DNA of 64,000 bases, taken from NCBI GenBank assembly GCA_013287815.1, contig JABDDC010000006.1, positions 959-64,958 of the forward strand. Reading direction: 5' to 3'. Of this stretch, positions 17,455-41,612 are shown one piece after another; the stretch's first letter is position 1, and the number at the start of each line of letters is the position of its first letter. The translations under genes were made by a program, and so were the position numbers. The notes below the pieces were generated by a model. It was given only the letters and a program-made list of their open reading frames with translations, made no database searches and was not told where the DNA came from. The DNA is from Chlamydiota bacterium (GTDB lineage: Bacteria > Chlamydiota > Chlamydiia > Chlamydiales > Parachlamydiaceae).

Positions 17455-17480
17455 TTAAACCCTGATCTTAGTGATCATTA

Positions 17481-19715
17481 ATGAAATTATCTTTAAAACG
17501 TATCTTCCTAATTATATCCGTCGTTGCTTCGGCAGCATTTTTATTATTAAGCCTTCTCTCATTATTGTTTAATTACCGCATTACTCAAAATCAGCATTAT
17601 TTTATACAAGTCACCAAGATTGAGACTTCTCGATATATCATGAGCAATGCCTTAACGAATTTTCTGGCAGACCAATCAGCCATATTAATCCAAGAAAAAC
17701 CCGAAGATATGCCTAGATTGAAATCTCCTCAAATCAAGGAGCAACAGTTCATGTCGGGAATTAAGGGGCTTTCACAAATCTCCGAAAGCAATCCTGAGAT
17801 CGACAAAATTCTTCAATCCATCAAAATAAATATCGGAAAATTTCTGAAAAGCGATCAAGAAATCCTGGATTTAACCGAATCTATTTTACGCCTTCGCAAA
17901 CAATCGCAAGTTAACTTAGATAAAATCGATAAAGATATAAATTTAATCAAAACAACTTGGGAAGGAATAGGCGATCAATTAACGCTACAGGAAGAATCGT
18001 TAGATAATGAGATTAATAAATATTTAAATAACAAAGATTTTAGCAGCGATCCCGCAAAAGTCAAGGCATTGTCACTCTTCAATGCAGAAACTTCTCAGAA
18101 TTTTATTACAGCCAGGAAATTCTTTTTGGAATTGGATACGAATTTTGTCTCGTTATCCTTACTGCTGACTCGACTTGTGCAAGAAACCGATTCCGATGCA
18201 CTCAATAATTTAAAGGCAAATCAACTCACCCAACTTATTGATTATCTCATGAATCAATTCCTACAAATTAATAATATTGTAAATTATTTCAATCAATATC
18301 TTGAAAAAAATGGAAAGGAATTTAAATCATTACAGCCCATGATCGCCAACATTTCAAAATTACCTCCAAAGATAAAAGAAGCCACGGCCCAATTCGATCT
18401 CTTTTCCTCAAATTTGATGGGAGCACTCGACAATCCCTATGAATTACGTAAGGAATTAAATCAGAAAGAATCTGAGCGTATCACCGCCTTAGCTGATGTA
18501 GACGAATATTTATTTAACATAAACAATCTACTTGACAAATTAAATGTAATTGCAATAAAGCTGGAAACCTCTTTAACTGAGACCGCCAATCAACTTGACT
18601 TTAATAACAGAATTATTGTCATTTTAATAAATATTTTATTTTTGTTATTTATATTTATTTTTGGATTATTCATTTTTAGGTCCATTGCAAATTCATTGGA
18701 TTTATTAACAGGGGCGATGAAACAGATGGTCACTGAAGAAGGCGTTTTAAATATTCATTTGGAAAAAACAAATTATGAAGATCTTAATGAAGTGGTTGGA
18801 GCATTTAACACGATGTCATTTGAGCTTCATAATACTCAAAAAAATCTACAAGAAAGAACGATTCAATTGATTGATCAAAATGAACAGCTGGAAACGGCGA
18901 TGGACAAATTAACTCGGGCACAAAATCAGATCATACAACAAGAAAAACTTGCATCCATAGGGCTTTTGTCTGCAGGGGTTGCACATGAGTTAAAAAACCC
19001 TTTAAATTTTGTCGTCAATTTCACCGATTTATCGAATAGAGAAATTACTAAGCTTGTGAAAGAATTTGAAGACCCCTCGAAAATGGATATCGAGAAGATC
19101 AAATACTCATTAAAAGATCTGCAAATAATGGATGAAAAAATCAGGTTCCATGGCAAGCGTGCCAATGATATCATTAATAATATGCTGTCTAAAGCTCGTC
19201 AAGGAGTGGCCATAGCCAAAGAAACATCAGTTGAACAATTAATTGACCAGGCAGTACAATTCATTGAACAAGCTTTTAAAAAACGGGACCCCGATTTTAC
19301 CGTTTCCATAGTAAAGAAATACGATCCCGGTATTGAACCCATTGAAGTCTTTCCGGAAGATTTGGTCAGAGTTTTTATCAATCTTATCGACAATACTTTT
19401 TATGCGCTTCTTGAGAAGCAAAAAAATATCGGAAAATCATTTGTTCCACAACTTGCAATTACCCTTCAGAATATGCAGAATGAAATTTGTATAAGCTTAA
19501 AAGACAATGGAACCGGAATTTCAAAGGAAAACATCAATAAAATCTTTCAGCCCTTCTTCACAACCAAGCCTACCGGCTCTGGAACGGGGCTCGGCTTATA
19601 CATTTGTTACGACATCATCATTCAGCAACACAAAGGTAAATTTGAAGCTCAAAGCGTCAAGGGAGAGTATACCGAATTCATCATCCATCTCCCCAAAATC
19701 ATGGCACCAAAATAA
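17481..19715 (+). CDS. Sensor histidine kinase with a large N-terminal sensor region
   Basis: N-terminal TM helix, roughly 360 aa helical extracytoplasmic region, second TM, HAMP-like linker, H-box SAGVAHELKNPLNF, N-box NLIDNTFYA and G-boxes DNGTGI / GSGTGLGL. Confidence 0.9.
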   Translation: MKLSLKRIFLIISVVASAAFLLLSLLSLLFNYRITQNQHYFIQVTKIETSRYIMSNALTNFLADQSAILIQEKPEDMPRLKSPQIKEQQFMSGIKGLSQISESNPEIDKILQSIKINIGKFLKSDQEILDLTESILRLRKQSQVNLDKIDKDINLIKTTWEGIGDQLTLQEESLDNEINKYLNNKDFSSDPAKVKALSLFNAETSQNFITARKFFLELDTNFVSLSLLLTRLVQETDSDALNNLKANQLTQLIDYLMNQFLQINNIVNYFNQYLEKNGKEFKSLQPMIANISKLPPKIKEATAQFDLFSSNLMGALDNPYELRKELNQKESERITALADVDEYLFNINNLLDKLNVIAIKLETSLTETANQLDFNNRIIVILINILFLLFIFIFGLFIFRSIANSLDLLTGAMKQMVTEEGVLNIHLEKTNYEDLNEVVGAFNTMSFELHNTQKNLQERTIQLIDQNEQLETAMDKLTRAQNQIIQQEKLASIGLLSAGVAHELKNPLNFVVNFTDLSNREITKLVKEFEDPSKMDIEKIKYSLKDLQIMDEKIRFHGKRANDIINNMLSKARQGVAIAKETSVEQLIDQAVQFIEQAFKKRDPDFTVSIVKKYDPGIEPIEVFPEDLVRVFINLIDNTFYALLEKQKNIGKSFVPQLAITLQNMQNEICISLKDNGTGISKENINKIFQPFFTTKPTGSGTGLGLYICYDIIIQQHKGKFEAQSVKGEYTEFIIHLPKIMAPK

Positions 19716-20833: not shown

Positions 20834-21916
20834 ATGAGTATTGAAGAACTAAATTCGATTAGAACCAAGATAGATGCGGTTGATTCTCAAATTGAAGAGT
20901 TAATTTGTCAACGTGGAGAACTTGCGAAAGAGGTTGGGAGAATCAAGCATAAAAGTGCCGAAAAAGAAATCAATTTTTATCGACCTGAACGTGAAGCTCA
21001 GGTCATGCGAAAAGTCTGTGAAAAAAATAAGGGACCGATAGATGACAAGCATATGATGACAATTTTTCGGGCGATAATGACCGCTTGCCTTGATTTGGAA
21101 CAACATTTGAAGGTTGCTTATTTGGGTCCTGAAGGAACATTCACTCAAGTAGCCGCTTACCAACATTTTGGAAGAGACATTAACGTCATTCCATTTTCAT
21201 CTACAAAAAGGGTGCTCCACGAAACCGAAATGAAGAGCGCTAATTTTGCAGTGTTACCAATTGAAAATTCGATTGTTGGAATGATGAATACAACATTGGA
21301 TGCTTTGCTTAATACAAATCTTAAAATTTGCGGGGAAGTCATTTTGCCTATCCATTATCATCTTTTGGGAGCCAATGAAGGGGGGATTGATTCAATCAAG
21401 AAAGTTTATGGGCATGAGCTGGCCTTTCAACAATGTAATCAATGGTTGGCCCAACATCTTCCACAGGCGAACAAAATTTCTCTTGAAAGCACATCTATGG
21501 CTGCAAAATTAGCTTTAGATGAACCTGATGCTTCAGCCCTCGGCGGCGATCTAACAGCAGAAACTTATTCATTAAAAATTCTTGCCAGTCAGATTGAAGG
21601 AAGTGCGCATAACGAAACCAGATTTATCGTGTTAGGTCAACAAAGTGTAGGGCCTTCCGGTAAAGATAAAACCTCATTATTGATATCGGCCCCTTATCAA
21701 CCTAGGTTTTTGGCCGAATTATTTAACTATTTTTCTGAAAAGAATGTTAATATCTGTCAATTCACATCGAGGCCTTATCATGAAAAAAAAGGCTATTATT
21801 GGTTTTATATTGATATTGAGGGACATCAAAATGAGAAGCCCATTGCAGATGTTTTAGAATTATTGGCAAATAAAACTATTCCCATAAATGTATTGGGTTC
21901 ATATCCTCGTTTATAG
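20834..21916 (+). CDS. pheA: Bifunctional chorismate mutase / prephenate dehydratase (P-protein)
   Basis: CM_2-type N-terminus (LNSIRTKIDAVDSQIEELICQRGELAKEVGRIK). PDT domain (VAYLGPEGTFTQ, ETRFIVLG). C-terminal ACT-like region. Confidence 0.9.
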   Translation: MSIEELNSIRTKIDAVDSQIEELICQRGELAKEVGRIKHKSAEKEINFYRPEREAQVMRKVCEKNKGPIDDKHMMTIFRAIMTACLDLEQHLKVAYLGPEGTFTQVAAYQHFGRDINVIPFSSTKRVLHETEMKSANFAVLPIENSIVGMMNTTLDALLNTNLKICGEVILPIHYHLLGANEGGIDSIKKVYGHELAFQQCNQWLAQHLPQANKISLESTSMAAKLALDEPDASALGGDLTAETYSLKILASQIEGSAHNETRFIVLGQQSVGPSGKDKTSLLISAPYQPRFLAELFNYFSEKNVNICQFTSRPYHEKKGYYWFYIDIEGHQNEKPIADVLELLANKTIPINVLGSYPRL

Positions 21917-21991: not shown

Positions 21992-23161
21992 TTGAAAGAA
22001 CGTCTCTATCACGTTCATTCAAATACGGAAAAGACGTTGATCTCTCAAACGAATTTATTTCCTTCCAATGAAGAAATCATTAAATCCATTTTGGGATCCA
22101 TCCGTCTTGTCAAATATCACCCCTCCCGACTCATTCTTAAAGAAGGGGAAACCGGAGGAGATGCGATTTATATGGTCCAGAATGGTTCTGTACGCGTCTT
22201 TACTTATGACAGCAATGGAATAAAGATCCCCTTAGCCCGACTTGAGAGCGGGGACTATTTTGGCGAGCAAACTCTTTTAAGTGATTTACATAAAACGCGC
22301 TCTGCCAACGTTGAATCCATTACACCAGTCACTTTAATCCGCATTGATGCAAAAAGCTTCATAACCCTTTTAAGAGATGATCCTGAATTTCGGAAAAAGA
22401 TTGGCATACTAGGAGACGCGCAAGCATTTAGTCGCCTTCTTGCGATGAGCGAATATGAAAAAAGTCCATGGCTCTCTGCTATAATCAAGAAGGATAAGAA
22501 GCATAACTCGAATATTCAAAGCTATTCCATTAAATTGTCTCACGATAAATTTGATTCTTTTTACACTGGCCAATATGTAATGATCAGGGCTAAAATGGGT
22601 GAATATTGGCTGGAGAGACCTTATACCGTTTCTGACTTGCCGGTTGAGAATGAATTGAGAATTACTATTAAGTACAATCCTGAAAGTATCTTTACAGAGT
22701 GGCTGTTTCATCGAGCACCCGACGAATTAAATATCTTTGTGACTCAGCCTAGAGGGTCTTTCATATTAAACCTGAATAGTGATTCAAATATTTTATGTTT
22801 TGCCGGCGGAATAGGGATTACTCCGTTTATTACCTTTGCAAAGGCATTTGCCTTTCAAAACAGAAAAAGTGATAAGATGCATATCCTTTATTCTGCGTTG
22901 AATGAACTAGATTTTATTTTCAAGGATGAATTCAGCTCTATTGCACAAAGTACACCATCATTTTCTGTCAGGTATCGGGCCACGGACAAGGAAGGACTGC
23001 TTTCAGAAAAGGAAATTATTAAGGTTGTAGATTCCTTTAACCGCCCGGATATTTACATCTGCGGCCCGGAAGGTTTTATTAAATTGGTTCAGGATGCACT
23101 GCTATCAATCCGTTATGATGCAAAAAAAATTAAGATCGACCAATATGTTCATGCAGGTTAA
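21992..23161 (+). CDS. cNMP-binding domain fused to an FNR-like FAD/NAD(P)-binding oxidoreductase
   Basis: The N-terminus has a CAP/cNMP fold pattern (GDAIYMVQNGSVRV...GDYFGEQTLL...RSANV). The C-terminus has RPYTVSD (RxYS/T FAD motif), FAGGIGITP (NAD motif) and DIYICGPEGF. The start is a TTG in the ORF track and is uncertain. Confidence 0.75.
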   Translation: MKERLYHVHSNTEKTLISQTNLFPSNEEIIKSILGSIRLVKYHPSRLILKEGETGGDAIYMVQNGSVRVFTYDSNGIKIPLARLESGDYFGEQTLLSDLHKTRSANVESITPVTLIRIDAKSFITLLRDDPEFRKKIGILGDAQAFSRLLAMSEYEKSPWLSAIIKKDKKHNSNIQSYSIKLSHDKFDSFYTGQYVMIRAKMGEYWLERPYTVSDLPVENELRITIKYNPESIFTEWLFHRAPDELNIFVTQPRGSFILNLNSDSNILCFAGGIGITPFITFAKAFAFQNRKSDKMHILYSALNELDFIFKDEFSSIAQSTPSFSVRYRATDKEGLLSEKEIIKVVDSFNRPDIYICGPEGFIKLVQDALLSIRYDAKKIKIDQYVHAG

Positions 23162-23167
23162 CCATTA

Positions 23168-24157
23168 ATGGAAAAGAGAAAATTAGGACAGTTAGAAGTT
23201 TCTGCCTTGGGATTTGGCTGTATGGCACTTTCTGAATTTTACGGCGAACCTCTCGATCAAAAGAGCGCCATTCAGATCATTCACTGCGCCCTTGAATCGG
23301 GCATCACCCTGCTCGACACTGCAGATATGTATGGCTTTGGCGATAATGAGCTTTTAGTGGGGAAAGCTATCGAAGGACGCCGCAATCAAGTTGTGGTAGC
23401 TACTAAAACAGGGATCGTCCGAAAGAAAGAGGATCCTTCTTTTAGGGAATTCTGCGGGAAACCCGAGTATATCAAAAAGCAATGCGAAGGAAGCTTACTG
23501 CGCCTAGGCATCGAGACGATCGACCTTTACTACCTTCATCGGCTCGATCCCTCGACCCCCATCGAAGAATCAGTTGGAGCAATGAAAGATCTGGTCAAAG
23601 AGGGTAAAGTGAGATATATCGGCCTGTCGGAGGTAGAAGCAGAACAGATTGAACGAGCTCAAAAGATTCACCCGATCACAGCCCTCGAGACCGAATACTC
23701 TTTATGGAGTCGCGATCCGGAGGCCGAGGTCTTCGACCTCTGCAAAAGACTGAATATCGGTTTTGTTGCTCATAGTCCTATTGGAAGGGGTTTCCTAGGC
23801 GGCCAGATCAAATCATTCGACCAACTGCCCGAAGATGATTTTAGGAGAACGATCCCTCGCTTTATGGGGGAAAACTTCGACTTTAACCTCAAGATTGTCG
23901 ATATGATCGATCAGATGGCCAAGAAGAAAGGCTGCACAAACGTTCAATTGGTCCTTGCTTGGATACTGGCGCATCCGCTTGGAATCGTCCCCCTATTTGG
24001 AACTAAAGAGTCAAAACATATTCCGGAGAATGCGAGGAGCACCGATGTCAAGCTCACGGCTGACGAGTTTTACATTTTGAATCAGATGATACCGCCCGGC
24101 TTGGCCAAAGGTGTCCGCTACCCTGCCGTCTCCAAAAAACATTATGAGAAGCCATAA
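23168..24157 (+). CDS. Aldo/keto reductase
   Basis: LGFGCMALS, LLDTADMYG, KTG, LYYLHRLD and IGLSE motifs of the AKR11/13-type family. The start is 6 nt after the upstream stop. Confidence 0.9.
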   Translation: MEKRKLGQLEVSALGFGCMALSEFYGEPLDQKSAIQIIHCALESGITLLDTADMYGFGDNELLVGKAIEGRRNQVVVATKTGIVRKKEDPSFREFCGKPEYIKKQCEGSLLRLGIETIDLYYLHRLDPSTPIEESVGAMKDLVKEGKVRYIGLSEVEAEQIERAQKIHPITALETEYSLWSRDPEAEVFDLCKRLNIGFVAHSPIGRGFLGGQIKSFDQLPEDDFRRTIPRFMGENFDFNLKIVDMIDQMAKKKGCTNVQLVLAWILAHPLGIVPLFGTKESKHIPENARSTDVKLTADEFYILNQMIPPGLAKGVRYPAVSKKHYEKP

Positions 24158-24160
24158 TTG

Positions 24161-25846
24161 TTAACCTAATGCCATTGGTGTTTTACTCCTGGCGGCTTTA
24201 ATGGTCTCGCCAAGCTGCTGTAACATAGGTCCGCAGTCTAAGCGGTCGAGATGTATTTCAATGAAAGAGAGCTCCTGGCTTGCTTCGGCCCGAGTTAAGG
24301 CTTCTTCCAGGTCGCTTTCCTGCTTTACTTCACAGCTCCAGAAATTATCACCAAACACAGCTGGCAATTGATGATATTTCCAGGGTTGCAAATCATTGTA
24401 AATGGCCTCTCTGATCACTCTTTCAGTGGTGTAGCCATCATTATTGAGCAAAAATATAATGGGTTTACAGTTGTATCGCATGATTGTCGATAACTCTTGC
24501 GCCGTTTCTTGAAATGCGCCATCTCCAACAAGTAGAATAGTGCGACGATTGGGTGCAGCAGTGCAGACACCTAGCAGGGCGGGAGTTCCATACCCGATTG
24601 ACATATAGTCGGCTTGTCCAATATAAAGTACATCAGGCGGTAATTGCATTTGTGAACAACAAAATATAGCGCAGCCTGTATCCACAACGACAATATCATC
24701 CGGACGTAAAAAATGAGCTAATTTTTTGAAAAAAAACTGAGTGGTCATAGGGACCTGACGCCCCTTATCCATTTTTTGTCCGGGGGTATACTCAAAATGT
24801 TTTTTTATCGTTTTCTTACTTTGATTTTTTGTTTCTCCGAATTTTTTAGACAAGTTTTTTATAAAATCATTTATATGGACGGGAGTGTGTTTGTGGTGTT
24901 GAATCAACACTTGATCGGTTTTAGCTTCTATCATGATGTCATGTGAAAGTGCAGCAGTAAAACCGCCCATATCCGTTTCATTTAAATTAGATCCCATTAG
25001 TAAAACGGCATCCGCTTCTTCAACAATTTTGCATATCGCAGGATCTCCCCATTTCCCCTGATAAATTCCCATGTATTGTGGGTGCTGTTCCGAGATAATG
25101 CCTTTGGCAGAAAATAAAGAAGCACAAAGAAATCCGCTATTTTCTACAAGATCTTTATAGTCTTCCTTCAGGAGGTAGCTCATCAAATAGGGACCTCCAA
25201 TAATGACAGGATTTTTGGCTTTTGTTAACAACTGATAAGCCTTCTCAACTGCTTGTACGAGTGTCTCCCTGTGACTATTAGCAGGCGATAATTCAAATGG
25301 CCCCGGAGCTTCGCATGTGTGATAAATGATATCGGTAGGCAAAGATATATACACCGGTCTTTTATGGTAAAGGCAAGCTTGCAATGCTTGATCGATTTGT
25401 TTTGGCGCTTGTTGAGGGTCACTGATGAATTGGCAGTCGACCGTGATTTCTTCATACATCTTCATGGCCGCTAAATAATCGGTTTCAATGGAGTGATGAA
25501 TGTGTTTCGGTTTATGATGGTATTTTAAAGCCGGACTTCCTCCAATGACTACCACCGGAACATGTTCACAATAGGCGCCTGCAATGGCATTGATGGCACT
25601 AAATTCCCCTACGGAAAATGCCAAGCCAACAGCACTTAAACCATTGACTCTAGCATAGCCGTCTGCTGCATATCCTGCATTGAGTTCATTGCAGCAGCAA
25701 ATTAATTCTAAATCATTTTCCAGAGCGCAATCGAGAAAATTGAATAAATAGTCACCGGCAACGATGAACATTTGATTGACACCAAGCTGTTTCAACCGTG
25801 TAACCAAATAACTTCCAACAGTAAATTTTGAATCTGACTTTGTCAT
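24161..25846 (-). CDS. ThDP-dependent 2-keto-acid decarboxylase (indolepyruvate/phenylpyruvate/pyruvate decarboxylase family)
   Basis: The N-terminal TVGSYLVTRLKQLGVNQMFIVAGDYLFNFLD is PDC/IpdC-like. The ThDP motif is GDGAFQETAQELSTIMRYNCKPIIFLLNNDGYTTER. Confidence 0.85.
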   Translation of the reverse strand: MTKSDSKFTVGSYLVTRLKQLGVNQMFIVAGDYLFNFLDCALENDLELICCCNELNAGYAADGYARVNGLSAVGLAFSVGEFSAINAIAGAYCEHVPVVVIGGSPALKYHHKPKHIHHSIETDYLAAMKMYEEITVDCQFISDPQQAPKQIDQALQACLYHKRPVYISLPTDIIYHTCEAPGPFELSPANSHRETLVQAVEKAYQLLTKAKNPVIIGGPYLMSYLLKEDYKDLVENSGFLCASLFSAKGIISEQHPQYMGIYQGKWGDPAICKIVEEADAVLLMGSNLNETDMGGFTAALSHDIMIEAKTDQVLIQHHKHTPVHINDFIKNLSKKFGETKNQSKKTIKKHFEYTPGQKMDKGRQVPMTTQFFFKKLAHFLRPDDIVVVDTGCAIFCCSQMQLPPDVLYIGQADYMSIGYGTPALLGVCTAAPNRRTILLVGDGAFQETAQELSTIMRYNCKPIIFLLNNDGYTTERVIREAIYNDLQPWKYHQLPAVFGDNFWSCEVKQESDLEEALTRAEASQELSFIEIHLDRLDCGPMLQQLGETIKAARSKTPMALG

Positions 25847-25853
25847 AAAATTT

Positions 25854-26537
25854 CTATAACTTCCTCATTCCGGCAATGCCAACGCGTCGTGAAGGGTAGG
25901 TATAATAGATAACGCGAAGTCCGCGTTCCCCAAAACCTCCAACAACAGCCTGCCAACCATCATGTTCTTTTCCTTCTTCCTTGCACCGGGTATAGGTCCA
26001 TAGTTTGGGATTCTCCTGTGTACCACTTCTATAGTAGATATTCCCCGTAGAGATATACTCTAACTGGATGGCTATGGATGCAGTTAAAATATCAGGAACC
26101 TCATATCCTTTTTCCAGCACGAGGGGTTTTTGTTCAGAGTAGATCTTAAATCGGCTTTCGGGAATCACATCTTTTGTCAACAACGCCCAATAGGAGGCTT
26201 TAACCCGGATTTCTTTAAACTCTTGGGGAATCAGGTCTGCAATGTACTCATATTTGGTTAGGCGACCTGTTTGACGTTTCGCCAAAATCTCTTCCCATTT
26301 TTCGATGGAAAGGGGGACTTTCATTGGAGGATCGCCTACTTCAACAGTTGCGGGAACAAAAACAAGCCAGTCGGTCTCGTGCACTTTCTTATCCGGCCAG
26401 AATGGGCTGGGCTTCATGAATTCTTCAATCCAGTTTTCAGGAAGAGGAATCTCGTCAACTTGACCGATAAAGGCATTCCATTTTTCAGGACCAATGACAG
26501 ATTGATACAATTTATCTTTTTCGTTTAAATTAGCCAT
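25854..26537 (-). CDS. Hypothetical protein (no recognisable family) embedded in the P450 operon
   Basis: Clean 227 aa ORF. There is a 7 nt gap to the decarboxylase start and 24 nt from the upstream gene. No signal peptide or TM. No motif recognised. Confidence 0.6.
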   Translation of the reverse strand: MANLNEKDKLYQSVIGPEKWNAFIGQVDEIPLPENWIEEFMKPSPFWPDKKVHETDWLVFVPATVEVGDPPMKVPLSIEKWEEILAKRQTGRLTKYEYIADLIPQEFKEIRVKASYWALLTKDVIPESRFKIYSEQKPLVLEKGYEVPDILTASIAIQLEYISTGNIYYRSGTQENPKLWTYTRCKEEGKEHDGWQAVVGGFGERGLRVIYYTYPSRRVGIAGMRKL

Positions 26538-26561
26538 ACTTTTTTCCTTAATTTAAAAAAT

Positions 26562-27956
26562 TTATCGATGTTTGGCTATAAAACCTAGTACTATGCTATT
26601 AAAAAATTCAGGTTGTTCCCAATAGAGTGCATGTCCTCCCTCGGCGAGGATTGCTATCTCGCAATTGGGGATATGGCTAGCGTACGCCCTTAACATTGGC
26701 GGAGGCATGTAAAGGTCTGCATCCCCTCCAATCATCATCACGGGTGTTTTCACATGGGCGAGCTTCTCCCAAGTGACCTCATGTGCGTTTGCATTCACTT
26801 GGCCAATTCGAACGCCGGTAGCCGCTTTCTCCTCGAGAGCCGACCACATCTCTACCCCTTTTGGATTACTGACACGATAAGTGGGCGAAAGTTCGCGGAA
26901 CTCGGCTGGAAACTCGTTAAAGCCATTGGGACAAAGACGAATACACAACTTGATGTAATCGGGATCCTTAACTTCTCCAATTGGGCAGTAGGATGAGCTG
27001 ACAACGCTATAGAGATCTGCTCCATAAGAAAGGGCGTAATTCATGGCAAGACCCCCACCTGCTGCAGCTCCAACGAGATGACATTTGGTAATGCCCAGGA
27101 ATTTAAGCAGATTGCGCAAATCATTGACTGCGCTTCCCGGATTTTCCTTAGAAACCGGATCGGACTTACCATAGCCGCGTCTCGAATAAGTGATGACTCG
27201 ATAGCCGGACTTGGCAAAGACAGGTTGTTGATAACCCCAAACGGTCGAGCTTCTTTCCGGATGCAGCAATACGACAGGTTCACCTTTGCCGCCGGTATCT
27301 GAATATTCAAGTTGGGTGTCAGGAAGCTTGGCAATGCCTTGTTTTGCCGGAAACGGAGCTGGTATATGTACTGGACTTGCGGGGTTGAAAAGATGATCGG
27401 CAGCAAACACTCCACTTGCTATTTCATCTATCGGCTCCAAGACAAAATCAAAATGTCCAATCGGATATTGAATGACTCGCCCAGGTCTATACCAATGGTC
27501 TTCAGCATTGTGTTCATCGTCAGGAAAGTATAGCTGAGTCGTTATTAATTTATAACCATCCGCACTGATTTTGAAATGGAGATGGGCACAACGAATATCA
27601 AGTGGATCGTCGTTAATTTCATATCCGCCAGGAATTATTGTTTCCAATTTATAGAAACCATCACTATCTGATCTTAATTTTCCTCGTAATGTATAGCCTT
27701 CGGTGTCATAAACACCATCAGTAGTGGTCTGCCAAATGTCTAAAGTGGCCCCACCCAGTGGAGTGCCATCCGTAGAAAGAACCCGTCCAGATAAGGTCAG
27801 AGATCGATCTTCAGGAAGCTTGGGTGATGAAAAAACACCTGTTATTTCCGGTGCTCCCGCATAATAAAAAGGACCTTCAATATCTGACTCGGTTGGTTCT
27901 AGTCGTTGTCCACCGGTGATTGGTACAAATTTATTGTAAGCTTTATATATTTGCAT
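26562..27956 (-). CDS. Fusion of an intradiol ring-cleavage dioxygenase domain with an alpha/beta-hydrolase fold lacking the nucleophile
   Basis: The N-terminal half has LSGRVLSTDGTPLGGATLDIWQTTTDGVYD...YTLRG...CAHLHFKI (Dioxygenase_C pattern with Y,Y,HxH). The C-terminal half has VVLLHP...RVITYSRRGYGKSD...HLVGAAAGGGLAMNYA...GGDAD...GGHALYWEQPEFF. The GxSxG motif reads GAAAG. Confidence 0.75.
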   Translation of the reverse strand: MQIYKAYNKFVPITGGQRLEPTESDIEGPFYYAGAPEITGVFSSPKLPEDRSLTLSGRVLSTDGTPLGGATLDIWQTTTDGVYDTEGYTLRGKLRSDSDGFYKLETIIPGGYEINDDPLDIRCAHLHFKISADGYKLITTQLYFPDDEHNAEDHWYRPGRVIQYPIGHFDFVLEPIDEIASGVFAADHLFNPASPVHIPAPFPAKQGIAKLPDTQLEYSDTGGKGEPVVLLHPERSSTVWGYQQPVFAKSGYRVITYSRRGYGKSDPVSKENPGSAVNDLRNLLKFLGITKCHLVGAAAGGGLAMNYALSYGADLYSVVSSSYCPIGEVKDPDYIKLCIRLCPNGFNEFPAEFRELSPTYRVSNPKGVEMWSALEEKAATGVRIGQVNANAHEVTWEKLAHVKTPVMMIGGDADLYMPPPMLRAYASHIPNCEIAILAEGGHALYWEQPEFFNSIVLGFIAKHR

Positions 27957-27988
27957 AAGAATCCTTCAAAAAAATATTGTTTTTCATC

Positions 27989-29350
27989 TTAAGACATAGA
28001 TGTTTTCTGCTTTAATTTCAAATTATTAATGCTGGGCCTTATTGTGACGGCTGTGGACATCACGGGCTTCACTTCCTGATTAGGCAAAAATTCAAATGAG
28101 AATCGGCGCAGGATGATCACGAGTGCGGTGAGGATCTCTAGGAACGCGAAATTGCGCCCAATGCATCCCCTTTTGCCGCTGCCAAAGGGAAGGTAAGCGT
28201 AAGGATGGCTTTGTCCGAATGGATTATCCAAAAATCGCTGTGGGTTAAAAGTATTAGGCTCCTTCCAAAAATCAGGGTGGTGGTGAATTTGGTGGTTGTT
28301 AATAATTACACCTGCTCCCTTAGGAATAAAATATCCTTTCACGGAAGTATCAACAACAGCCTGTCTTAGCTGATTGAAGCTTGTAGAATTCATGCGCATC
28401 GATTCTTTAATCGTCGCTATAGTGTAGGTTAATTTATTAATTTGTTCATACGTCGGCTGTTCATCACCGAGCACATCCGAAATTTCCCGGCAGATTTTTT
28501 GCCTAATTTCGGGATGGCGTGTCAGTGCAATCAATACATAGAAAAGTGCCGGTGATGTTGTAAATAATCCAACCCCTGAAGCTGTGGAAATTTGAAATCC
28601 TATTTGATCAATGAGTTCTTCCCTGCTTAGTTCATTGCCATATTCATTGATAGCATTTCCAATAAAATCATCAATCTTATCACCTGATTCAAGCCGTCTT
28701 CTTACCCATTTTTTATAGGCTTCACGATTAGAGCCGATGGCCTCATCATACTGTTTTTTTTTCCAAGGCAATTTCCAAATCCAAGGGAAGTATGTGGTAT
28801 GATGCGCCATGAGGGTCCCAACAGAATGATACATCATGTCAACGGTCTCTTCGGGACTGTCTTCTATATAGTAGAAGAATGAATTGTTAACAAAGTTAAT
28901 GATAAGGCAAGTCAATTCATAGCCAACATCAACAACTGCGTTGTCGGGATATTTATCGAACCAGGCATCGACCCGTTTAGTAGCTATTTCATAAAATTTA
29001 GCCATATACCGTTCAAAAAAAACATGCACATTTACCGATTTTAAAGCCACTTCCCGATCCCTTTTCCACTTAACCGGATCGTTTTGCGTAAAAAAACTTA
29101 CTAAACCTGCCAGCGGCTCCAAGCCATGAACTAAGGCTGGATGTTTATTGAAGAAGTCGTCTTGCTTATCTCCCAGGATGATTTGGGCGTAATCCGGATG
29201 CGTAAAAAAATAGTTTGTAATCTTTCCTGTATCGAACTTGGCTATATCGCCGTATGTTTCAAAAATATGGGTTCTCAGACCGACCGGATCATCTCTATTC
29301 CATCTGAAGTACTTCCATTTTGACATTTTGATATCGGGAACATTTAACAT
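27989..29350 (-). CDS. Cytochrome P450
   Basis: Heme-thiolate loop PFGSGKRGCIGRNFAFLE, ExxR (KESMR) and an I-helix-like ASGVGLFTTSPAL. It appears soluble (no N-terminal anchor). Confidence 0.9.
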   Translation of the reverse strand: MLNVPDIKMSKWKYFRWNRDDPVGLRTHIFETYGDIAKFDTGKITNYFFTHPDYAQIILGDKQDDFFNKHPALVHGLEPLAGLVSFFTQNDPVKWKRDREVALKSVNVHVFFERYMAKFYEIATKRVDAWFDKYPDNAVVDVGYELTCLIINFVNNSFFYYIEDSPEETVDMMYHSVGTLMAHHTTYFPWIWKLPWKKKQYDEAIGSNREAYKKWVRRRLESGDKIDDFIGNAINEYGNELSREELIDQIGFQISTASGVGLFTTSPALFYVLIALTRHPEIRQKICREISDVLGDEQPTYEQINKLTYTIATIKESMRMNSTSFNQLRQAVVDTSVKGYFIPKGAGVIINNHQIHHHPDFWKEPNTFNPQRFLDNPFGQSHPYAYLPFGSGKRGCIGRNFAFLEILTALVIILRRFSFEFLPNQEVKPVMSTAVTIRPSINNLKLKQKTSMS

Positions 29351-29353
29351 AGA

Positions 29354-31396
29354 TTATTCCTTTACTTGTTCAGGGCCACCAACATTACTGAATTCTTCAA
29401 CGTATATTTTTTCCTGTGGAATCTTCAGATTTTCAATTAAGGTGTTTTTTATATTTCTCGTGTAGCTATCGGGGCCGCAAATATAAATATCTGCGTTTGC
29501 CATTAATTCTATCTGTCTGGAAATTTCATCTGAAGTTAATCTCCCCTCTTTAACGGTTTGTCGATACCTTACTTTAAAATTAGGATATTTTTCACTCATT
29601 TTTTCAAACTCAATTCTGAAAATATCCTCTCCGGCATTCCTGAAGGAATAGTCAATTGTCACTGAAATGGAAGGTTCATTTCTAATCATTTTTGCCATCA
29701 TGATAGCCGGAGTAATTCCAATTCCACCGGCATAAAAGATCACGGGAGTTTGGAAGGGATATTTAATCAAAAATTCTCCTTGAGGCTTGGACACGTAAGC
29801 TATCATATTCTCGGATGCATTTTCAAATAACCAGTTGGATAGGGCTCCTTTTTCTTCACGTTTTATAGTTATTTCATAAAAGTCATCCTCAGGATGACTT
29901 GTCAATGTGTAGGGCCTCTCCACCCAATTTCCATTAATTTGAAATCTGATAACCACATGTTGTCCCGGAAGAAAGGTTTTTTTATCTTCCGCATTGATCG
30001 GTTTAAGTTGAAAAGACCAGATGATATTATTATGTTTAATGATTTTGAAGATATTGCAAGATTTCCAAACATCATAGCCAAGCAATTCCTGTATTCTTGG
30101 TCTACAGCCTCCGCATACAGACCCCGCTCCTGTGCATTTCATCACTTGTTTGAGAGAGTTTGCTCCGGATTTAATAGTGTCTACAATCGTTTGAGTGCTA
30201 ATAAGCATGCATTTGCACAGTATATCTTCACCAACACTGATCAACTTGAAAGACTTGGTAGCCAATGAACCGCTAACAATAAATCTTTCGAGGATTTCAG
30301 GAGTCATTTTGGTTTTCTCGATGATCATTTGGACCAAATCGCTGTTGTCATCCCAATACCCGAAATTGACGACTCCTACCAATTCCCCATCCTTAACTCT
30401 AATCTCCCTTTTTTCTTGTTCGTTTCTCTGATAAACAAAGGTCTCATAGTCTTCTATTCCAAGCCGTGAGATGCAAAATATCCCATTACCTGTCACCTGA
30501 TAACCGATCAATTTCATCTCTTTTGAAACATCCATCTTTAAACAGATGGCGGGGAGCCCTAAAAATACTCCTTGATAACGTTTAACTCGACCAACATGTG
30601 GGGTCTTATAAACATTTTCGAGAGAGACTAGCACCTCTTTGAATCGGTCACTTGAACCGTACATTTTCAACAAGGTCTCTTTATCTAAAACAATGAGTTC
30701 AGAATTACCACGTGATACTGCCATTGCTATGCGTGGCAGTTTTTTTATAATTCCCAATTCACCAAATATCTCACCCGGCTCCAGGGTCACATTTAAAATA
30801 ATTTCCCCTCTTTCATTTTCAGTTCGGATATCCACTTCTCCGGACAAGATAATATAAGCGGCATCCGATTTGTCATTTTGATAAAAGATTACCTCTCTAT
30901 CTTTAAATTTCTCAACTCTTTCATCAATTTTGGCGACATCTATATTGCTTTCTTGAAGATACTGAAAATTCTCTTCTAACTGGTGAAATACAGACTCAAC
31001 TCCACGCTCCCTCGTTACCTTCAATATCGTTTCATTGAATTGACTTTCCGCTTTTAATACTTCTTTTGGGATCATTAAACATGTGCAATCTTCAGTAGCG
31101 CAAGCAGAAGAATGTCTGGCAGTTAAACCCAAACTTGTGGCGGCTTCCTCTCCAAAAAACTCCTTCTCCTTTCTAATGACTTGAACCTGCTCATCACCTG
31201 CCGAATTAATCGTAAATAGTTTAACTTTCCCCTTTTCAATGATATAAACGGAATCGGCCGCCTCTCCAACAGAGTAGATGGTTTGCCCATTGCAAAACTT
31301 TTTTTCTTGAGACTTTTCAAAAATCTCACCCGAAAAAGGGATGTTGAATATATTCAGAAGGCCAGAATCTCTGACCAATTTTTTTTGGATGTCCAC
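29354..31396 (-). CDS. Multidomain reductase: 2x cNMP-binding, an unknown domain, a BFD-like [2Fe-2S] domain and an FNR-like FAD/NAD(P) domain
   Basis: The two CAP-type domains read GEAADSVYIIEKGKVKL...FFGEEA...RHSSACA and SDAAYIILSGEVDI...IFGELGII...PRIAMAV. The Cys pattern CKC...CTGAGSVCGGC fits Fer2_BFD. The FNR part has RPYTLTS, YAGGIGITP and DIYICGPDSY. The stop is 3 nt before the P450 start. Confidence 0.8.
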   Translation of the reverse strand: MDIQKKLVRDSGLLNIFNIPFSGEIFEKSQEKKFCNGQTIYSVGEAADSVYIIEKGKVKLFTINSAGDEQVQVIRKEKEFFGEEAATSLGLTARHSSACATEDCTCLMIPKEVLKAESQFNETILKVTRERGVESVFHQLEENFQYLQESNIDVAKIDERVEKFKDREVIFYQNDKSDAAYIILSGEVDIRTENERGEIILNVTLEPGEIFGELGIIKKLPRIAMAVSRGNSELIVLDKETLLKMYGSSDRFKEVLVSLENVYKTPHVGRVKRYQGVFLGLPAICLKMDVSKEMKLIGYQVTGNGIFCISRLGIEDYETFVYQRNEQEKREIRVKDGELVGVVNFGYWDDNSDLVQMIIEKTKMTPEILERFIVSGSLATKSFKLISVGEDILCKCMLISTQTIVDTIKSGANSLKQVMKCTGAGSVCGGCRPRIQELLGYDVWKSCNIFKIIKHNNIIWSFQLKPINAEDKKTFLPGQHVVIRFQINGNWVERPYTLTSHPEDDFYEITIKREEKGALSNWLFENASENMIAYVSKPQGEFLIKYPFQTPVIFYAGGIGITPAIMMAKMIRNEPSISVTIDYSFRNAGEDIFRIEFEKMSEKYPNFKVRYRQTVKEGRLTSDEISRQIELMANADIYICGPDSYTRNIKNTLIENLKIPQEKIYVEEFSNVGGPEQVKE

Positions 31397-31535
31397 CTTA
31401 GCTTGTCCTTATTCTTGATAAATACTTTCTAACAACAAATGATTTTTATTGCATGAGATTTTTTTCTTTAGTACGGTCAGGGTGCAAGTAAAAGTGATGA
31501 TTTTATAAATATTCATTCCGAAAAGGAGAAAAGTC

Positions 31536-33017
31536 ATGGGAGCTAGAAACGGAAAAGCATATCTGGATTCTCTCGATAATATGCAAAGAGAGATATGGTT
31601 AGATGGAGAAAAGCTGACTCAGAATTTGAGTCAATATCCCTTATTTTCGGGTATCGCCAAGTCGATGGCCCAGCTGTATGATATGCAGCATGATCCTCTC
31701 TTGATAGATCAGATGACCTACAACTCACCTACCACCGGCGATCGCGTTGGGATGAGTTTTCTCGAACCTAAAACAATGGAGGATGTAGCTAAAAGACGGA
31801 TCATGATGAAAAATTGGGCCGATTGGTCAGGAGGCATGCTTGGAAGAACTCCCGATTATAAAAATAGTGAATTGATGGCTTGGGCTTCAGCTGCTGAAGT
31901 ATTTGGCAGAAAAGATCCACGCTTTGCTGAAAACATAAAGAGATATTATGAATACGTTCGAGAGAATGATCTTCTTTTAACCCATGCTCTCCTTGCGCCT
32001 CAAGTTAATCGTTCAGCATTGGCGCACGAGCAAAAAGATCAGTTCATCGCAGCAAAAGTCGTTGAAAAGAATACAAAAGGAATAGTCATTCGCGGAGCCC
32101 GATATCTGGCTACCTTCCCTTTAGCTGATGAAATTATTGTTTTTCCCCCTCCTCCTTTACTCGAACAAGTGAATTTTTCTGTAAAAGATATAAAAACTGC
32201 TGCTTTAGAAGCTCCTTATATGTTTGCTTTTTCAATATCCGTTGAAACACCCGGCCTCAAATTTATCTGCCGAGAGTCTTTTTCCAAAAAATCCATTTTC
32301 GACCATCCCCTGGCGGCCCGTTTTGATGAACAAGATGCTGTAGTCGTTTTCGATGATGTACTTGTTCCATGGGATAGAGTCTTTTTGCTGGAAGATATCG
32401 AAGGGCGCCATGCTATGTATGCCGAAACTGATGCCAGAATCCATATGACCCACCAAGTTCTTATTAGAAGGGTTGCTAAAACAGAATTCCTCTTGGGCGT
32501 TATCTGTAAAGTCGCCGAAATGATCGGAATCGATCAATTCCCCAATGTACATGAAAAGATTATTAAAGTGATCATGGCACTAGATACTATGAAGGCCTTA
32601 TTGGTCGCCAGTGAAGCTAATGCTAAAGTTAACCGCTGGGGTGTAATGACGCCCGATGATGAGCCATTAGCTACTTCCAGAAGTCTTTATCCACTGCTTT
32701 ACCCTCAAATTCGTGAGATCATTCAGCAACTTAGTGCCGGCGGCTTGATGGCTCTTCCAACAGAGTTGTCGATGGATAGTGCCATCAGAGAAGATATTGA
32801 CAAGTACTATCAAGGCAAAAATGCCAATTCAGAAGAGCGGATCAAACTTTTTCATCTTTGCTGGGATATTGCAGGAAGCTCTTTTGGGTCTAGACAAGAA
32901 CTTTATGAACGATTTTTCTCAGGTGATCCACTAAAGACTGCAACAGCATTTTATTATCATTATGATAAGGCGCCGGTGATAAAAAAAGTTGAAGAATTTC
33001 TCAATAGGAAAATATAA
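31536..33017 (+). CDS. hpaB: 4-hydroxyphenylacetate 3-monooxygenase oxygenase component family (HpaB-like, FADH2-dependent)
   Basis: The N-terminal GARNGKAYLDSLDNMQREIWLDGEKL, the length (493 aa) and blocks such as LLTHALLAPQVNRS and GARYLATF are typical of the HpaB/4HPA3H family. aaaaggag lies upstream. Confidence 0.8.
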   Translation: MGARNGKAYLDSLDNMQREIWLDGEKLTQNLSQYPLFSGIAKSMAQLYDMQHDPLLIDQMTYNSPTTGDRVGMSFLEPKTMEDVAKRRIMMKNWADWSGGMLGRTPDYKNSELMAWASAAEVFGRKDPRFAENIKRYYEYVRENDLLLTHALLAPQVNRSALAHEQKDQFIAAKVVEKNTKGIVIRGARYLATFPLADEIIVFPPPPLLEQVNFSVKDIKTAALEAPYMFAFSISVETPGLKFICRESFSKKSIFDHPLAARFDEQDAVVVFDDVLVPWDRVFLLEDIEGRHAMYAETDARIHMTHQVLIRRVAKTEFLLGVICKVAEMIGIDQFPNVHEKIIKVIMALDTMKALLVASEANAKVNRWGVMTPDDEPLATSRSLYPLLYPQIREIIQQLSAGGLMALPTELSMDSAIREDIDKYYQGKNANSEERIKLFHLCWDIAGSSFGSRQELYERFFSGDPLKTATAFYYHYDKAPVIKKVEEFLNRKI

Positions 33018-36509: not shown

Positions 36510-37295
36510 CTAAACTTTAGCTTTCTCTTTTTTTTTGATCATTTCCATCACTTCTCTCATCTGTTCAAAAGTCAACTGTTGACTAGCATCTGTTTTAGCG
36601 ACATCAATGTTATCGTGAGTTTCAATCAAATACCCATCGAAATTATAGTTCAATGATTCATCAATAATTTTCATGACTTTGTGTCTTTCCCCACCTATAT
36701 GGGACGGATCAAGGAACATCGGAATTCCCATTTTTTCTTTCATTTCCATAGCCATTTCGAATTCAGGGATGTTGCGTAATTGCTTTGGATTTTCCCCATA
36801 CCCGGGTGTAAAACCTCTATGGCATGCCCATAGACGTTCTTTTGGAAAACCGACACTCATAATATGCTCATAGATTCCAAACCAATGCCTTTTATCCAGC
36901 CATATTTGATTTTTAAACATAAAAATGAGGTTTGGCGGACCGCTAGCTAAAATAGAAGCAATTCTTTTTTGTTCAAAATGATTTTGGTTTCTTGCTCCCA
37001 ACCAAACGACAGCGCCGGCATTTTTTATTCCGCAAATTTTTAATGCATCCACCATCATCTGCGCTTGAATAGCAGATAAAATTTCCGTACAAGGAATTAA
37101 TCCTCTATTTAAGGTCTCTTCAAAAAGCATGGGTATGCCATAAAATGCAAACCCTTCCCAACCGGGTGTTGTCCGGGGTTTCCATAAAGAAGCCCTTACA
37201 TATTTCAAGCCATCTTTTTTCAATTCCTCGGCACATGTGATAAGCTGCTCCCTTGATTCAAGGGCGCAGGGTCCCGCAATAATAGTTTTAGACAT
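36510..37295 (-). CDS. aroG: 3-deoxy-D-arabino-heptulosonate-7-phosphate synthase, class I-beta-like (unfused)
   Basis: IIAGPCALESREQ, LWKPRTTPGWEGF (KPRT motif), TEILS and DPSHIGGERHKV match the short DAHPS/KDO8PS I-beta fold. The shikimate context favours DAHPS over KDO8PS. Confidence 0.7.
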   Translation of the reverse strand: MSKTIIAGPCALESREQLITCAEELKKDGLKYVRASLWKPRTTPGWEGFAFYGIPMLFEETLNRGLIPCTEILSAIQAQMMVDALKICGIKNAGAVVWLGARNQNHFEQKRIASILASGPPNLIFMFKNQIWLDKRHWFGIYEHIMSVGFPKERLWACHRGFTPGYGENPKQLRNIPEFEMAMEMKEKMGIPMFLDPSHIGGERHKVMKIIDESLNYNFDGYLIETHDNIDVAKTDASQQLTFEQMREVMEMIKKKEKAKV

Positions 37296-39878: not shown

Positions 39879-40976
39879 ATGGCGACAAATTCTTTTGGCA
39901 CACTTTTTAAGATCACCACATGGGGGGAATCACATGGTAAAGCTCTCGGTGTGGTCATCGACGGCTGTCCGGCAGGGCTTGAAATCAGTGATGATGAAAT
40001 CAATCTTGAATTGGCCCTACGGGCACCAGGCAGAAATCCTTATACAACCCCCAGAAAAGAATTGGATATTGGGGAAATTTTATCCGGCGTTTTTGAAGGC
40101 AAAACTACAGGGGCTCCTATTTGCATCATGATCCGTAATAAAGACCAGGATTCAAGCAAATATACCCCGATCAAAGATTTACTTAGGCCTGGCCATGCTA
40201 ACTTCACCTACCTCGAAAAATACGGTATATTCGATTACCGTGGAGGAGGAAGATCTTCAGCCCGAGAAACTGCTGCAAGGGTAGCTGCCGGGGCCATCGC
40301 TAAGAAAATCTTGAAGCATTATCATATTTTTGTAGCAGCTTATATCAAGCAAATAGGAACGATAGTAGCAGAAATCAATTACTTGGATATACACGCATTA
40401 AGGCAAACAGCCTACAACGATCCACTATTCTGTCCCGATCCGAAGGCTTCTGCGAAAATGAGCGAGTTGATAGAGCAAGCAAAAAAAGAGGGTGATTCCC
40501 TTGGGGGTGTCATCGAATTTCTTGCGGTTTCCGTTCCTGTCGGACTTGGCGATCCTATTTACGAAAAACTGGAAGCCAAGTTGGCGAGTGCGATGATGAG
40601 CATTCCTGCTACAAAAGGATTTGAGTTTGGATCGGGTTTTCAGTCAGTCACGATGAAAGGTTCGGAACATAACGATGCCTTTATTTATGAGGATGGCAAA
40701 GTAGAAACAAAGACAAATTTTGCCGGTGGCACGCTTGGGGGTATTTCAACGGGGATGCCAATCATTGGCCGGGTCGCTTTCAAGCCCACTTCGAGCATTA
40801 AAAAACCCCAGGAAACATTGGATATTAAAGGGGAACAGAAGACATTTGAACTGCCGGAAGGATCGAGGCATGATCCATGCGTTGCGATCAGGGCTGCTCC
40901 TATTGTAGAGGCCATGACAGCATTAACGATAGTCGATTCCCTGCTCATGAACAGATGCGTAAGGTTAGATGTCTAA
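39879..40976 (+). CDS. aroC: Chorismate synthase
   Basis: FGTLFKITTWGESHGKALGVVIDGCPAGL, RPGHANFTY, GGGRSSARET and GSRHDPC signatures. Confidence 0.95.
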   Translation: MATNSFGTLFKITTWGESHGKALGVVIDGCPAGLEISDDEINLELALRAPGRNPYTTPRKELDIGEILSGVFEGKTTGAPICIMIRNKDQDSSKYTPIKDLLRPGHANFTYLEKYGIFDYRGGGRSSARETAARVAAGAIAKKILKHYHIFVAAYIKQIGTIVAEINYLDIHALRQTAYNDPLFCPDPKASAKMSELIEQAKKEGDSLGGVIEFLAVSVPVGLGDPIYEKLEAKLASAMMSIPATKGFEFGSGFQSVTMKGSEHNDAFIYEDGKVETKTNFAGGTLGGISTGMPIIGRVAFKPTSSIKKPQETLDIKGEQKTFELPEGSRHDPCVAIRAAPIVEAMTALTIVDSLLMNRCVRLDV

Positions 40977-41532
40977 TATCATAAAGAAGACCATTATTCT
41001 GTGCGGATTACCGGGCTGCGGCAAGACGACCGTAGGCAATTGCCTAGCAGAAAAAATTTCCAGCTCATTCATTGATGTGGATACCTTAATAGAAAAAGAA
41101 TATGCCGACACCATGGGTGAATTGCTGACATGCCGCCAGATCTTCGCTCATCAGGGAGTTCCATTCTTTCGAGAGTTGGAAAAAAGGGTGATTTCCTCTC
41201 TAGCACAAAAATCGCATCAAGATGCAATTATCTCAATTGGCGGTGGCGCTATGGAGAATCCCGAAAATGTAAAAGTATTAAAGTCAATTGGACTCGTTGT
41301 CTACCTTAAGGTTAATCTAAAAGAACTTTTTAAGAGAATTAACCGAAAGGGACTCCCCGCTTATCTCGATCCCGCCGATCCACTTGGTTCTTTTGAAAAG
41401 TTGGCTCAGAAACGAATCCCCATTTACAGTAATGCTGCTGACATTGAAATAGAAGCAGATTCATTGACACCGGAAGAAATAGCCACCAAAATTGTTGAAA
41501 AAATTTTGCAAATCGGGAAGTCGACTTACTAA
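40969..41532 (+). CDS. aroK: Shikimate kinase
   Basis: Walker A LCGLPGCGKTTVG, IDVD, FRELE and SIGGGA. It overlaps the aroC end by 8 nt. Confidence 0.85.
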   Translation: MSNIIKKTIILCGLPGCGKTTVGNCLAEKISSSFIDVDTLIEKEYADTMGELLTCRQIFAHQGVPFFRELEKRVISSLAQKSHQDAIISIGGGAMENPENVKVLKSIGLVVYLKVNLKELFKRINRKGLPAYLDPADPLGSFEKLAQKRIPIYSNAADIEIEADSLTPEEIATKIVEKILQIGKSTY

Positions 41533-41612
41533 TCTACATGAATTTTATGTAATTTCTTGTGTAGATTGGGTGCTTAAGGTATTATTCTAATAAAGAAGGT
41601 CAAAGGTCCACG

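Follow-up and report, generated by a model that had tools for sequence, protein, structure and literature searches.

A 64,000-nt stretch of contig JABDDC010000006.1 from a member of the Parachlamydiaceae, referred to here as the window, encodes a 680 aa reductase with two cyclic-nucleotide-binding (CNB) domains and, directly after it, a cytochrome P450. Sequence comparisons give good support to a functional partnership between these two proteins, and the two genes as a whole are, on balance, best explained as a dedicated two-protein P450 system in which the CNB domains gate the reductase. The reductase itself is not of a new type; it represents, in unfused form, a known and widespread modular electron-input cassette, and no study of the regulatory half of this cassette was found in the literature searched.

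Domain architecture of the reductase and P450

All coordinates are positions in the window, and both genes are on the (-) strand. The reductase gene has a GTG start codon preceded, 9 nt upstream, by an AAGGA ribosome-binding site. Its open reading frame (ORF) ends after the FNR module, with no nitric oxide synthase (NOS) oxygenase covalently attached, and the next gene is the P450. As the preliminary description of this region had reported, the two lie on the same strand with a gap of 3 nt (29351-29353) between the end of the reductase and the start of the P450. The features of the pair are as follows.

29354..31396 (-): reductase gene, 680 aa, CNB1-CNB2-RedC-BFD-FNR, from ORF, Pfam and NCBIfam evidence; an architecture common to ~39 protein clusters and 80 genomic loci
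31043..31324 (-): CNB domain 1 (CNB1), residues ~25-118, cassette F81-G-E83...R94-H-S-S-A-C-A (Pfam PF00027)
30923..31042 (-): helical inter-CNB linker, residues 119-158, poorly conserved; predicted local distance difference test score (pLDDT) <50 for residues 120-156
30647..30922 (-): CNB domain 2 (CNB2), residues ~159-250, cassette F211-G-E-L-G-I-I-K-K-L-P-R222-I-A-M-A-V-S (best Pfam stretch 162-246)
30263..30604 (-): Reductase_C/Rubredoxin_C-like domain (RedC), residues ~265-378, a seven-strand beta meander with two helices (NCBIfam, Pfam in relatives, fold)
30080..30223 (-): BFD-like [2Fe-2S] module, residues 392-439, ligands C394, C396, C428 and C431 (Pfam Fer2_BFD PF04324, E 6.7e-13)
29771..30043 (-): FNR-type FAD-binding barrel, residues 452-542, with the R494-P-Y-T motif (FAD_binding_6 PF00970, E 8e-10)
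29465..29731 (-): FNR-type NAD(P)H-binding domain, residues 556-644, with GGIGITP (557-563) and C640-G-P (NAD_binding_1 PF00175, E 5e-7)
27989..29350 (-): cytochrome P450, 453 aa, E-class, CYP102/CYP3-like (PF00067, E 9e-70)
28157..28186 (-): haem-thiolate loop of the P450, F389-G-S-G-K-R-G-C396-I-G (P450 motif)

The sensor half is recognised by the cNMP_binding profile PF00027 in two stretches (E 1.2e-37, 128 bits against a cut-off of 27.5). Two domains of this kind had been described as CAP-type. Their number stands, but the type does not, the closest relatives being the tandem CNB-A/CNB-B of PKA and PKG. The best PDB sequence matches of residues 1-280 are PKA regulatory subunits (PKA-R; E 5e-15), with one alignment spanning both CNBs, and the best fold matches of the full-length model are tandem-CNB PKA/PKG regulatory subunits (E ~1e-17) and flavohaemoglobin/FNR FAD-NAD modules. 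Unlike the PKA and PKG proteins, the window protein has neither an inhibitor/pseudosubstrate segment nor a kinase partner, and its output is a redox module.

In CNB domains the Gly-Glu of the phosphate-binding cassette holds the ribose 2'-OH and the Arg holds the cyclic phosphate. These residues, on whose presence the preliminary description had made its proposal depend, were found in both domains, where G82-E83...R94 and G212-E213...R222 align to the cassettes of PKA-R. The CNB1 cassette, FGEEAATSLGLTARHSSACA, aligns to CNB-A of PKA-R with a 2-residue insertion, and the CNB2 cassette, FGELGIIKKLPRIAMAVS, aligns position for position with FGELAL..PRAAT. Across 81 family members Gly-Glu and Arg are near-universal in both CNBs; for CNB1, G82 and E83 are kept in 74-75 of the 76 members having the region and R94 in 73 of 76, and for CNB2 the family consensus, FGELAL(I/L)xxxPR(S/A)ATVxA, is a canonical cassette. 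Mean pairwise identity is 34 % and 32 % in the two CNBs, 36-40 % in the redox modules and 19 % in the inter-CNB linker. The CNB values are near those of the redox modules, which indicates that the sensor domains are constrained about as strongly as the catalytic parts.

Between the sensor and redox halves lies a region of ~130 aa that had been left unassigned. It is a real folded domain, which when modelled alone with AlphaFold 2 gives a pLDDT of 87 and a predicted template modelling score (pTM) of 0.78, indicating a confident fold, and on the basis of Pfam and NCBIfam matches together with the fold evidence it can be assigned as a probable ferredoxin-reductase C-terminal domain, forming with the BFD module a NirB-like RedC+BFD block. 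The NCBIfam NirB model TIGR02374 covers residues 288-445, that is the middle domain and BFD (E 6e-14; model positions 312-471). The Rubredoxin_C profile PF18267 is matched by 7 of 28 members, at best with E 2e-5, the window protein itself being below the cut-off (E 0.052). All of the best 50 Foldseek PDB matches of the middle domain are BphA4/TodA/ArR/AIF/MDHAR-type reductases, with probabilities of 0.8-1.0 at weak E values (8e-3 to 0.1), and a sequence profile search of the PDB with this domain returned noise only (E >1). The protein differs from NirB/NasD in having no Pyr_redox_2 flavoprotein and no sirohaem domain, and in that its RedC+BFD block is joined to CNB and FNR modules.

The remaining modules agree with what had been described. 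The BFD-like CKC...CGGC module is present as C394-K-C396...C428-G-G-C431, and all four cysteines are invariant in 81 of 81 aligned family members; profile searches thus matched both the cNMP-binding and the BFD domains, for which such support had been asked. The RPYTLTS and GGIGITP motifs of the FNR-like module are likewise invariant or nearly so, with R494, Y496 and T497 invariant in the family alignment and GGIGITP and C640-G-P conserved. From these motifs, the cofactor of the module is read as FAD. Foldseek places the fold of the FAD/NAD module close to flavohaemoglobin 4eh1 (template modelling (TM) score 0.82-0.85, root-mean-square deviation 2.6), and its matches to 4eh1 and 2eix together have TM scores of 0.75-0.85. 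Outside the family, the closest proteins to the FNR module in the protein search are Fer2+FNR oxygenase reductases (P0040-P0042), and the BenC, MmoC, PaaE and GbcB models of NCBIfam give sub-threshold matches.

The nearest solved structures to the P450 are the CYP102 BM3 haem domain and CYP3A (E ~1e-34), and F389, G390, G392, K393, R394 and C396 of its haem-thiolate loop are invariant among eight P450 orthologues. The preliminary description had seen in the pair the electron donor of a class I P450. That label is wrong because the nearest solved relatives of the P450 are CYP102 BM3 and CYP3A, and a class I system is ruled out, since flavin and Fe-S are here in one FNR-type chain.

It is very probable, from the motifs and from homology to the self-sufficient NOS of Sorangium, that electrons pass from NAD(P)H to FAD, on to the [2Fe-2S] cluster and then to the P450 haem. 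FAD in the C-terminal FNR module would accept hydride from NAD(P)H, single electrons would move from FAD to the BFD-type cluster (Cys394/396/428/431), and the cluster would reduce the haem of the adjacent P450 at its FGSGKRGCIG loop. The same order, NAD(P)H to flavin to [2Fe-2S] to oxygenase, is found in class I and class VII P450 systems and in the BenC/MmoC reductases. In contrast to class I, a single chain holds both the flavoprotein and the Fe-S module, and this flavoprotein belongs to the FNR type instead of the glutathione-reductase type. In contrast to both classes, the cluster is BFD-type, not plant- or adrenodoxin-type, and is N-terminal to the flavin module and behind RedC; the reductase bears two sensor domains; and the P450 is CYP102/CYP3-like. 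Class VII (CYP116B/PFOR) differs further in that the P450 of the window is unfused, and the fused relatives use the CNB cassette, not PFOR.

Conservation of the pair and spread of the cassette

Related reductases were sought in a scan with one genome per species, which gave 294 relatives; partner counts are from the best 80 of these, all of which span roughly residues 25-675. In seven loci with a stand-alone reductase (L001-L005, L068, and L047) an orthologue of the window P450 follows directly (E 1e-51 to 1e-172). These include a Waddliaceae metagenome-assembled genome (MAG) in which the reductase is 51 % identical (L001), Myxococcota (L002), Coxiellaceae (L004), Acidobacteriota (L005) and Parachlamydiales (L068). 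In L075 a different P450 lies just upstream of the stand-alone reductase. The P450-adjacent reductases are each other's nearest relatives, except for L075.

The P450 side gives the same picture. Among 79 metagenomic P450 relatives, the orthologous clade consists of the six scoring at least 229 bits; the reductase is immediately upstream in five of the six, and the sixth is on a contig that lacks upstream sequence. The 73 more distant P450s (scoring 155 bits or less) are all without a neighbouring reductase of this kind. In all, the pair was found in 12 further loci, from Chlamydiota, Coxiellaceae, Myxococcota, Acidobacteriota and metagenomes, with otherwise unrelated flanks. The survey for CNB-BFD-FNR fusions beside P450s that had been proposed did find such pairs, and the partnership of the reductase with the adjacent P450 is supported, as far as sequence can, by adjacency throughout the clade from both directions of survey and by reductase-P450 fusions.

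Nothing else travels with the reductase and P450, and a conserved pathway context for the pair is rejected. The most frequent family among 59 flanking ORFs occurs three times, and the HpaB, dioxygenase, decarboxylase, 227-aa ORF and binding protein of the window have no homologues beside the reductase in the other loci.

The Waddliaceae MAG has a second arrangement at L001 17830-20524, where a 441-aa CNB-CNB-RedC-BFD protein without FNR (17830-19155) precedes a second paralogue of the P450, which shares 52 % identity with that of the window. The system seems to occur here in a split form. Since it is the FNR-less protein that precedes the P450 here, the sensor-plus-cluster part, with its BFD cluster, would be the P450-facing element. 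A further protein of this locus, encoded between the two P450 cassettes (15709-17703), is the orthologue, at 43 % identity, of a 689-aa protein of the window (48863-50932, (+)) with two CNBs, a PqqD-like segment and an M50 metallopeptidase. Fusions of CNBs to enzymes seem to be a theme in the lineage.

Beyond the pair, the same architecture is present in ~39 protein clusters in the protein search. Hosts of the family include Chlamydiota, Coxiellaceae, Myxococcota (among them cultured Polyangium), Sericytochromatia, Planctomycetota, Acidobacteriota, Burkholderiales, Thiomargarita and others. The partners joined to the cassette in the best 80 of the 294 loci are listed below.

Fused C-terminal NOS oxygenase: 26 loci, including cultured Polyangium
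Fused four-transmembrane domain of two kinds, ~170-180 aa: 12 + 11 loci
Fused P450 of another, unrelated family: 7 loci (L012, L017-L020, L027, L049)
Fused multihaem cytochrome c: 3 loci
Embedded in nitrate/nitrite reductase polypeptides: 2 loci (L056, L062)

The protein search adds a fusion to tryptophan 2,3-dioxygenase (P0063), a further P450 fusion (P0062) and a cassette with an N-terminal FAD-halogenase-like domain (P0025). Unfused partners are also found: a gene of the fatty-acid-desaturase family directly follows the stand-alone reductase in two Chlamydiae MAGs (L008 4273-5370, L009 5917-7062), and in Thiomargarita a multihaem cytochrome c gene does so (L046 2683-3987).

In L056 (1-4572) and L062 (5930-11812) the cassette is inside giant polypeptides, behind a large homologous N-terminal extension. 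The extension in L056 is a molybdopterin module of the nitrate-reductase type, and in L062 a NIR_SIR sirohaem nitrite/sulfite reductase module is C-terminal to the cassette. In these polypeptides the cassette may replace the NirB flavoprotein.

The best known proteins of comparable build are NOSs. The NOS of Sorangium cellulosum (scNOS) was reportedly characterised by Agapie et al. in 2009. In two papers, scNOS is described as an N-terminal 2Fe-2S/FAD/NAD reductase with a C-terminal NOS oxygenase, catalytically self-sufficient, and SiliNOS of Silicibacter as having the same architecture; the descriptions there name 2Fe-2S, FAD and NAD(P)H, and CNB domains go unmentioned in them (PMC4436077, PMC3701330). 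The reductase part of the Polyangium NOS is homologous to window residues ~6-670 (27-29 % identity, E ~1e-80) and carries both CNBs. The Polyangium fusions are named NOS oxygenase by NCBI, and one is a 'Cyclic nucleotide-binding domain-containing protein' in UniRef. Judged from these Polyangiaceae relatives, scNOS probably belongs to the cassette family. Like scNOS and SiliNOS, the window reductase has a BFD-type 2Fe-2S module followed by FNR-type FAD/NAD(P)H modules and would be donor to a haem-thiolate oxygenase; unlike them, it is encoded apart from its acceptor, a P450 in place of the NOS oxygenase.

Full-text literature searches found no paper on CNB domains on a NOS or a P450 reductase. 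The preliminary description had held that this is not a described type of P450 redox partner, which is correct in that a CNB-bearing P450 reductase is absent from the literature searched, but not in that the cassette is known from Sorangium-type NOS.

Proposed gating of electron flow and alternative explanations

In the favoured explanation the PKA-R-like tandem CNB would be an allosteric gate. A ligand occupying the phosphate-binding cassettes would shift the C-terminal CNB2 helix (residues 239-263), which is predicted to run straight into the RedC-BFD block, and this shift would change where the [2Fe-2S] domain sits between FAD and the acceptor haem, or how freely it moves. Such a gate would be a bacterial counterpart of the Ca2+/calmodulin that frees the FMN domain in mammalian NOS. 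The likeness to mammalian NOS is a functional analogy only, with a regulatory ligand-binding element controlling electron delivery from reductase to haem-thiolate; the domains are unrelated, and gating in the bacterial system is hypothetical.

Gating is favoured because the cassette residues and the CNB domains are kept wherever the cassette occurs. Control of the gate by a small ligand of some kind is judged rather probable, and control by a cyclic nucleotide falls a little short of probable; from the sequences, gating by a second messenger is plausible. Extended to the whole family, it is suggested tentatively that the widespread CNB-CNB-RedC-BFD-FNR cassette may use cyclic-nucleotide binding to switch NAD(P)H electron flow into oxygenases of the haem and non-haem kinds, with a P450 as the acceptor in the window and NOS, tryptophan dioxygenase, desaturase-family enzymes, cytochromes and nitrite reductase as acceptors in other hosts.

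A number of observations weigh against this explanation. P450s of the CYP102/CYP3-like kind usually take electrons from FMN domains. No nucleotide cyclase is present among the scanned window ORFs of at least 150 aa, and there is none among the top 25 recurrent families flanking the pair in other loci. The cassettes of the window protein are off the family consensus, and in this they also differ from PKA and PKG, being atypical after the cassette Arg: in CNB1 Arg+1 is His, in addition to the 2-residue insertion, and in CNB2 Arg+1 is Ile and the usual Thr/Ser (Arg+3) is replaced by Met. In three of eight P450-adjacent relatives the CNB2 cassette is eroded, with Glu and Arg lost in L004 and L075 and Glu changed to Asp in L005, and ligand binding by CNB2 is therefore not essential for P450 support. 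The full-length AlphaFold model has a pLDDT of 82.6 and a pTM of 0.48; at this pTM the inter-domain geometry gives no support, and it was left unused. Lastly, scNOS is self-sufficient in vitro according to secondary descriptions, which makes an obligate requirement for a ligand less likely.

Several of these points would also be expected if the reductase were the P450 donor, as above, with CNBs whose ligand is some other metabolite (a nucleoside, a CprK-like aromatic effector, or 2-oxoglutarate, the ligand of NtcA) or that only dimerise or scaffold, with no control by cAMP or cGMP. The CNB fold does serve non-cyclic ligands, and Trypanosoma PKA-R, which binds nucleosides, is among the structural matches together with NtcA and FNR-type regulators; the departures at Arg+1 and Arg+3, the erosion of CNB2, the lack of a cyclase among the ORFs scanned in the neighbourhood and the reported self-sufficiency of Sorangium NOS are also in its favour. 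However, no CNB positions are better conserved than Gly-Glu and Arg in more than 80 members from more than 10 phyla, the CNB2 consensus is a textbook cassette, and the best sequence matches are true cAMP/cGMP binders, not CRP/FNR-type regulators. CNBs without cyclic-nucleotide control are therefore considered unlikely, though worth keeping in mind.

Two genes near the pair bear on a second alternative.

31536-33017 (+): HpaB-type 4-hydroxyphenylacetate 3-monooxygenase, oxygenase component (TIGR02309, 579 bits against a cut-off of 480), across a divergent intergenic region of 140 nt
21992..23161 (+): truncated paralogue of the reductase, 389 aa, with one CNB (cassette YFGEQTLLSDLHKTRSANVES) and FNR but without RedC and BFD (Pfam)

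As the oxygenase of a two-component flavin monooxygenase, HpaB depends on a flavin reductase, and the 680-aa protein could chiefly serve this enzyme, the adjacency to the P450 being secondary. The HpaB match is above the equivalog cut-off and its gene starts only 140 nt upstream on the opposite strand; the FNR module gives sub-threshold NCBIfam matches to the flavin reductases Fre and LuxG, and no canonical HpaC was seen among the scanned window ORFs. Yet none of the 80 reductase loci has an HpaB homologue, whereas the coupling of reductase to P450 is strict, and an Fe-S cluster would be superfluous in a flavin reductase. HpaB is thus disfavoured as the client, and this alternative is very unlikely. 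The Fe-S-free paralogue, which lies between PheA and an aldo-keto reductase and whose FNR shares 34 % identity with residues 444-673 of the reductase (E 2e-43), is a better candidate; it may reduce flavin for HpaB or provide the FNR function to CNB-BFD proteins that lack this module.

Least probable of all is that the adjacency is non-functional and the 680-aa protein works on its own, for instance in reducing ferric iron or another small molecule, with only an operon in common with the P450: some stand-alone members (L024, L023) do lack an obvious redox partner gene alongside, but the pair recurs 12 times besides the window with otherwise unrelated flanks, and the cassette is repeatedly fused covalently to haem enzymes, P450s included.

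If gating by the CNB domains is true, it would amount to direct, post-translational control of a bacterial P450/NOS reductase by a second messenger, a form of regulation that was not found described, and it would cover at least 80 species-level genomes, more than 10 phyla and several classes of enzyme. It would be the prokaryotic counterpart of calmodulin-gated NOS, and NO synthesis in myxobacteria and Sericytochromatia would be under cyclic nucleoside monophosphate control. The regulation of self-sufficient bacterial NOS, the physiological inputs of which are stated to be unknown (PMC4436077), would become a reopened question. For P450 biocatalysis, a ligand-switchable reductase would be available. 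Even without gating, the pair would be a new two-component P450 system of an scNOS-type 2Fe-2S/FAD reductase with a CYP102-like P450, the scNOS reductase would be one instance of a general modular electron donor, and a P450 operon is documented in an environmental chlamydia.

Genes surrounding the pair in the window

The pair heads five co-directional (-) genes separated by gaps of 3-32 nt. The three genes downstream of the P450 (24161..27956, gaps of 7-32 nt) probably share an operon with the pair, in this organism only, and are as follows.

26562-27956 (-): fusion of an intradiol (catechol/protocatechuate-type) dioxygenase and an alpha-beta-hydrolase (3-oxoadipate enol-lactonase-like), directly downstream of the P450
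25854-26537 (-): 227-aa ORF within the operon, unmatched in Pfam and NCBIfam and without homologues in related loci
24161-25846 (-): indolepyruvate/phenylpyruvate-decarboxylase-like thiamine diphosphate enzyme (Pfam/NCBIfam)

A scan of 23900-31700 for promoters and terminators gave counts equal to those in shuffled controls. The Rfam scan of the window had no matches, and an upstream riboswitch is therefore not indicated.

Genes for shikimate and aromatic amino-acid synthesis are scattered at 6180-7637, 20834-21916, 36510-37295 and 39879-43930. They encode an AroD/AroE fusion, PheA, a DAHP-synthase-family protein, AroC, AroK and AroB, an unusual capacity for a chlamydia-like organism. The chorismate synthase shares 75-77 % identity with proteins of Parachlamydia/Parachlamydiaceae and 81 % with its counterpart on the contig of the Waddliaceae MAG, which places the window in an environmental member of the Parachlamydiales. 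The local operon, together with the surrounding shikimate, PheA and HpaB genes, hints at an aromatic compound as the P450 substrate, for this organism only.

Elsewhere in the window, a vanadium-chloroperoxidase-like protein (DUF6851 with the second helical-bundle domain of VCPO) is encoded at 3342-4829 (-), adjoined at 4918-5886 (-) by the gene for a eukaryote-like leucine-rich-repeat protein. Two tandem paralogues of ~820 aa (52190-54670 and 54793-57249, (+)) have PPDK_N ATP-binding and PEP-utilizer mobile domains, and relatives of these are present on the Waddliaceae contig.

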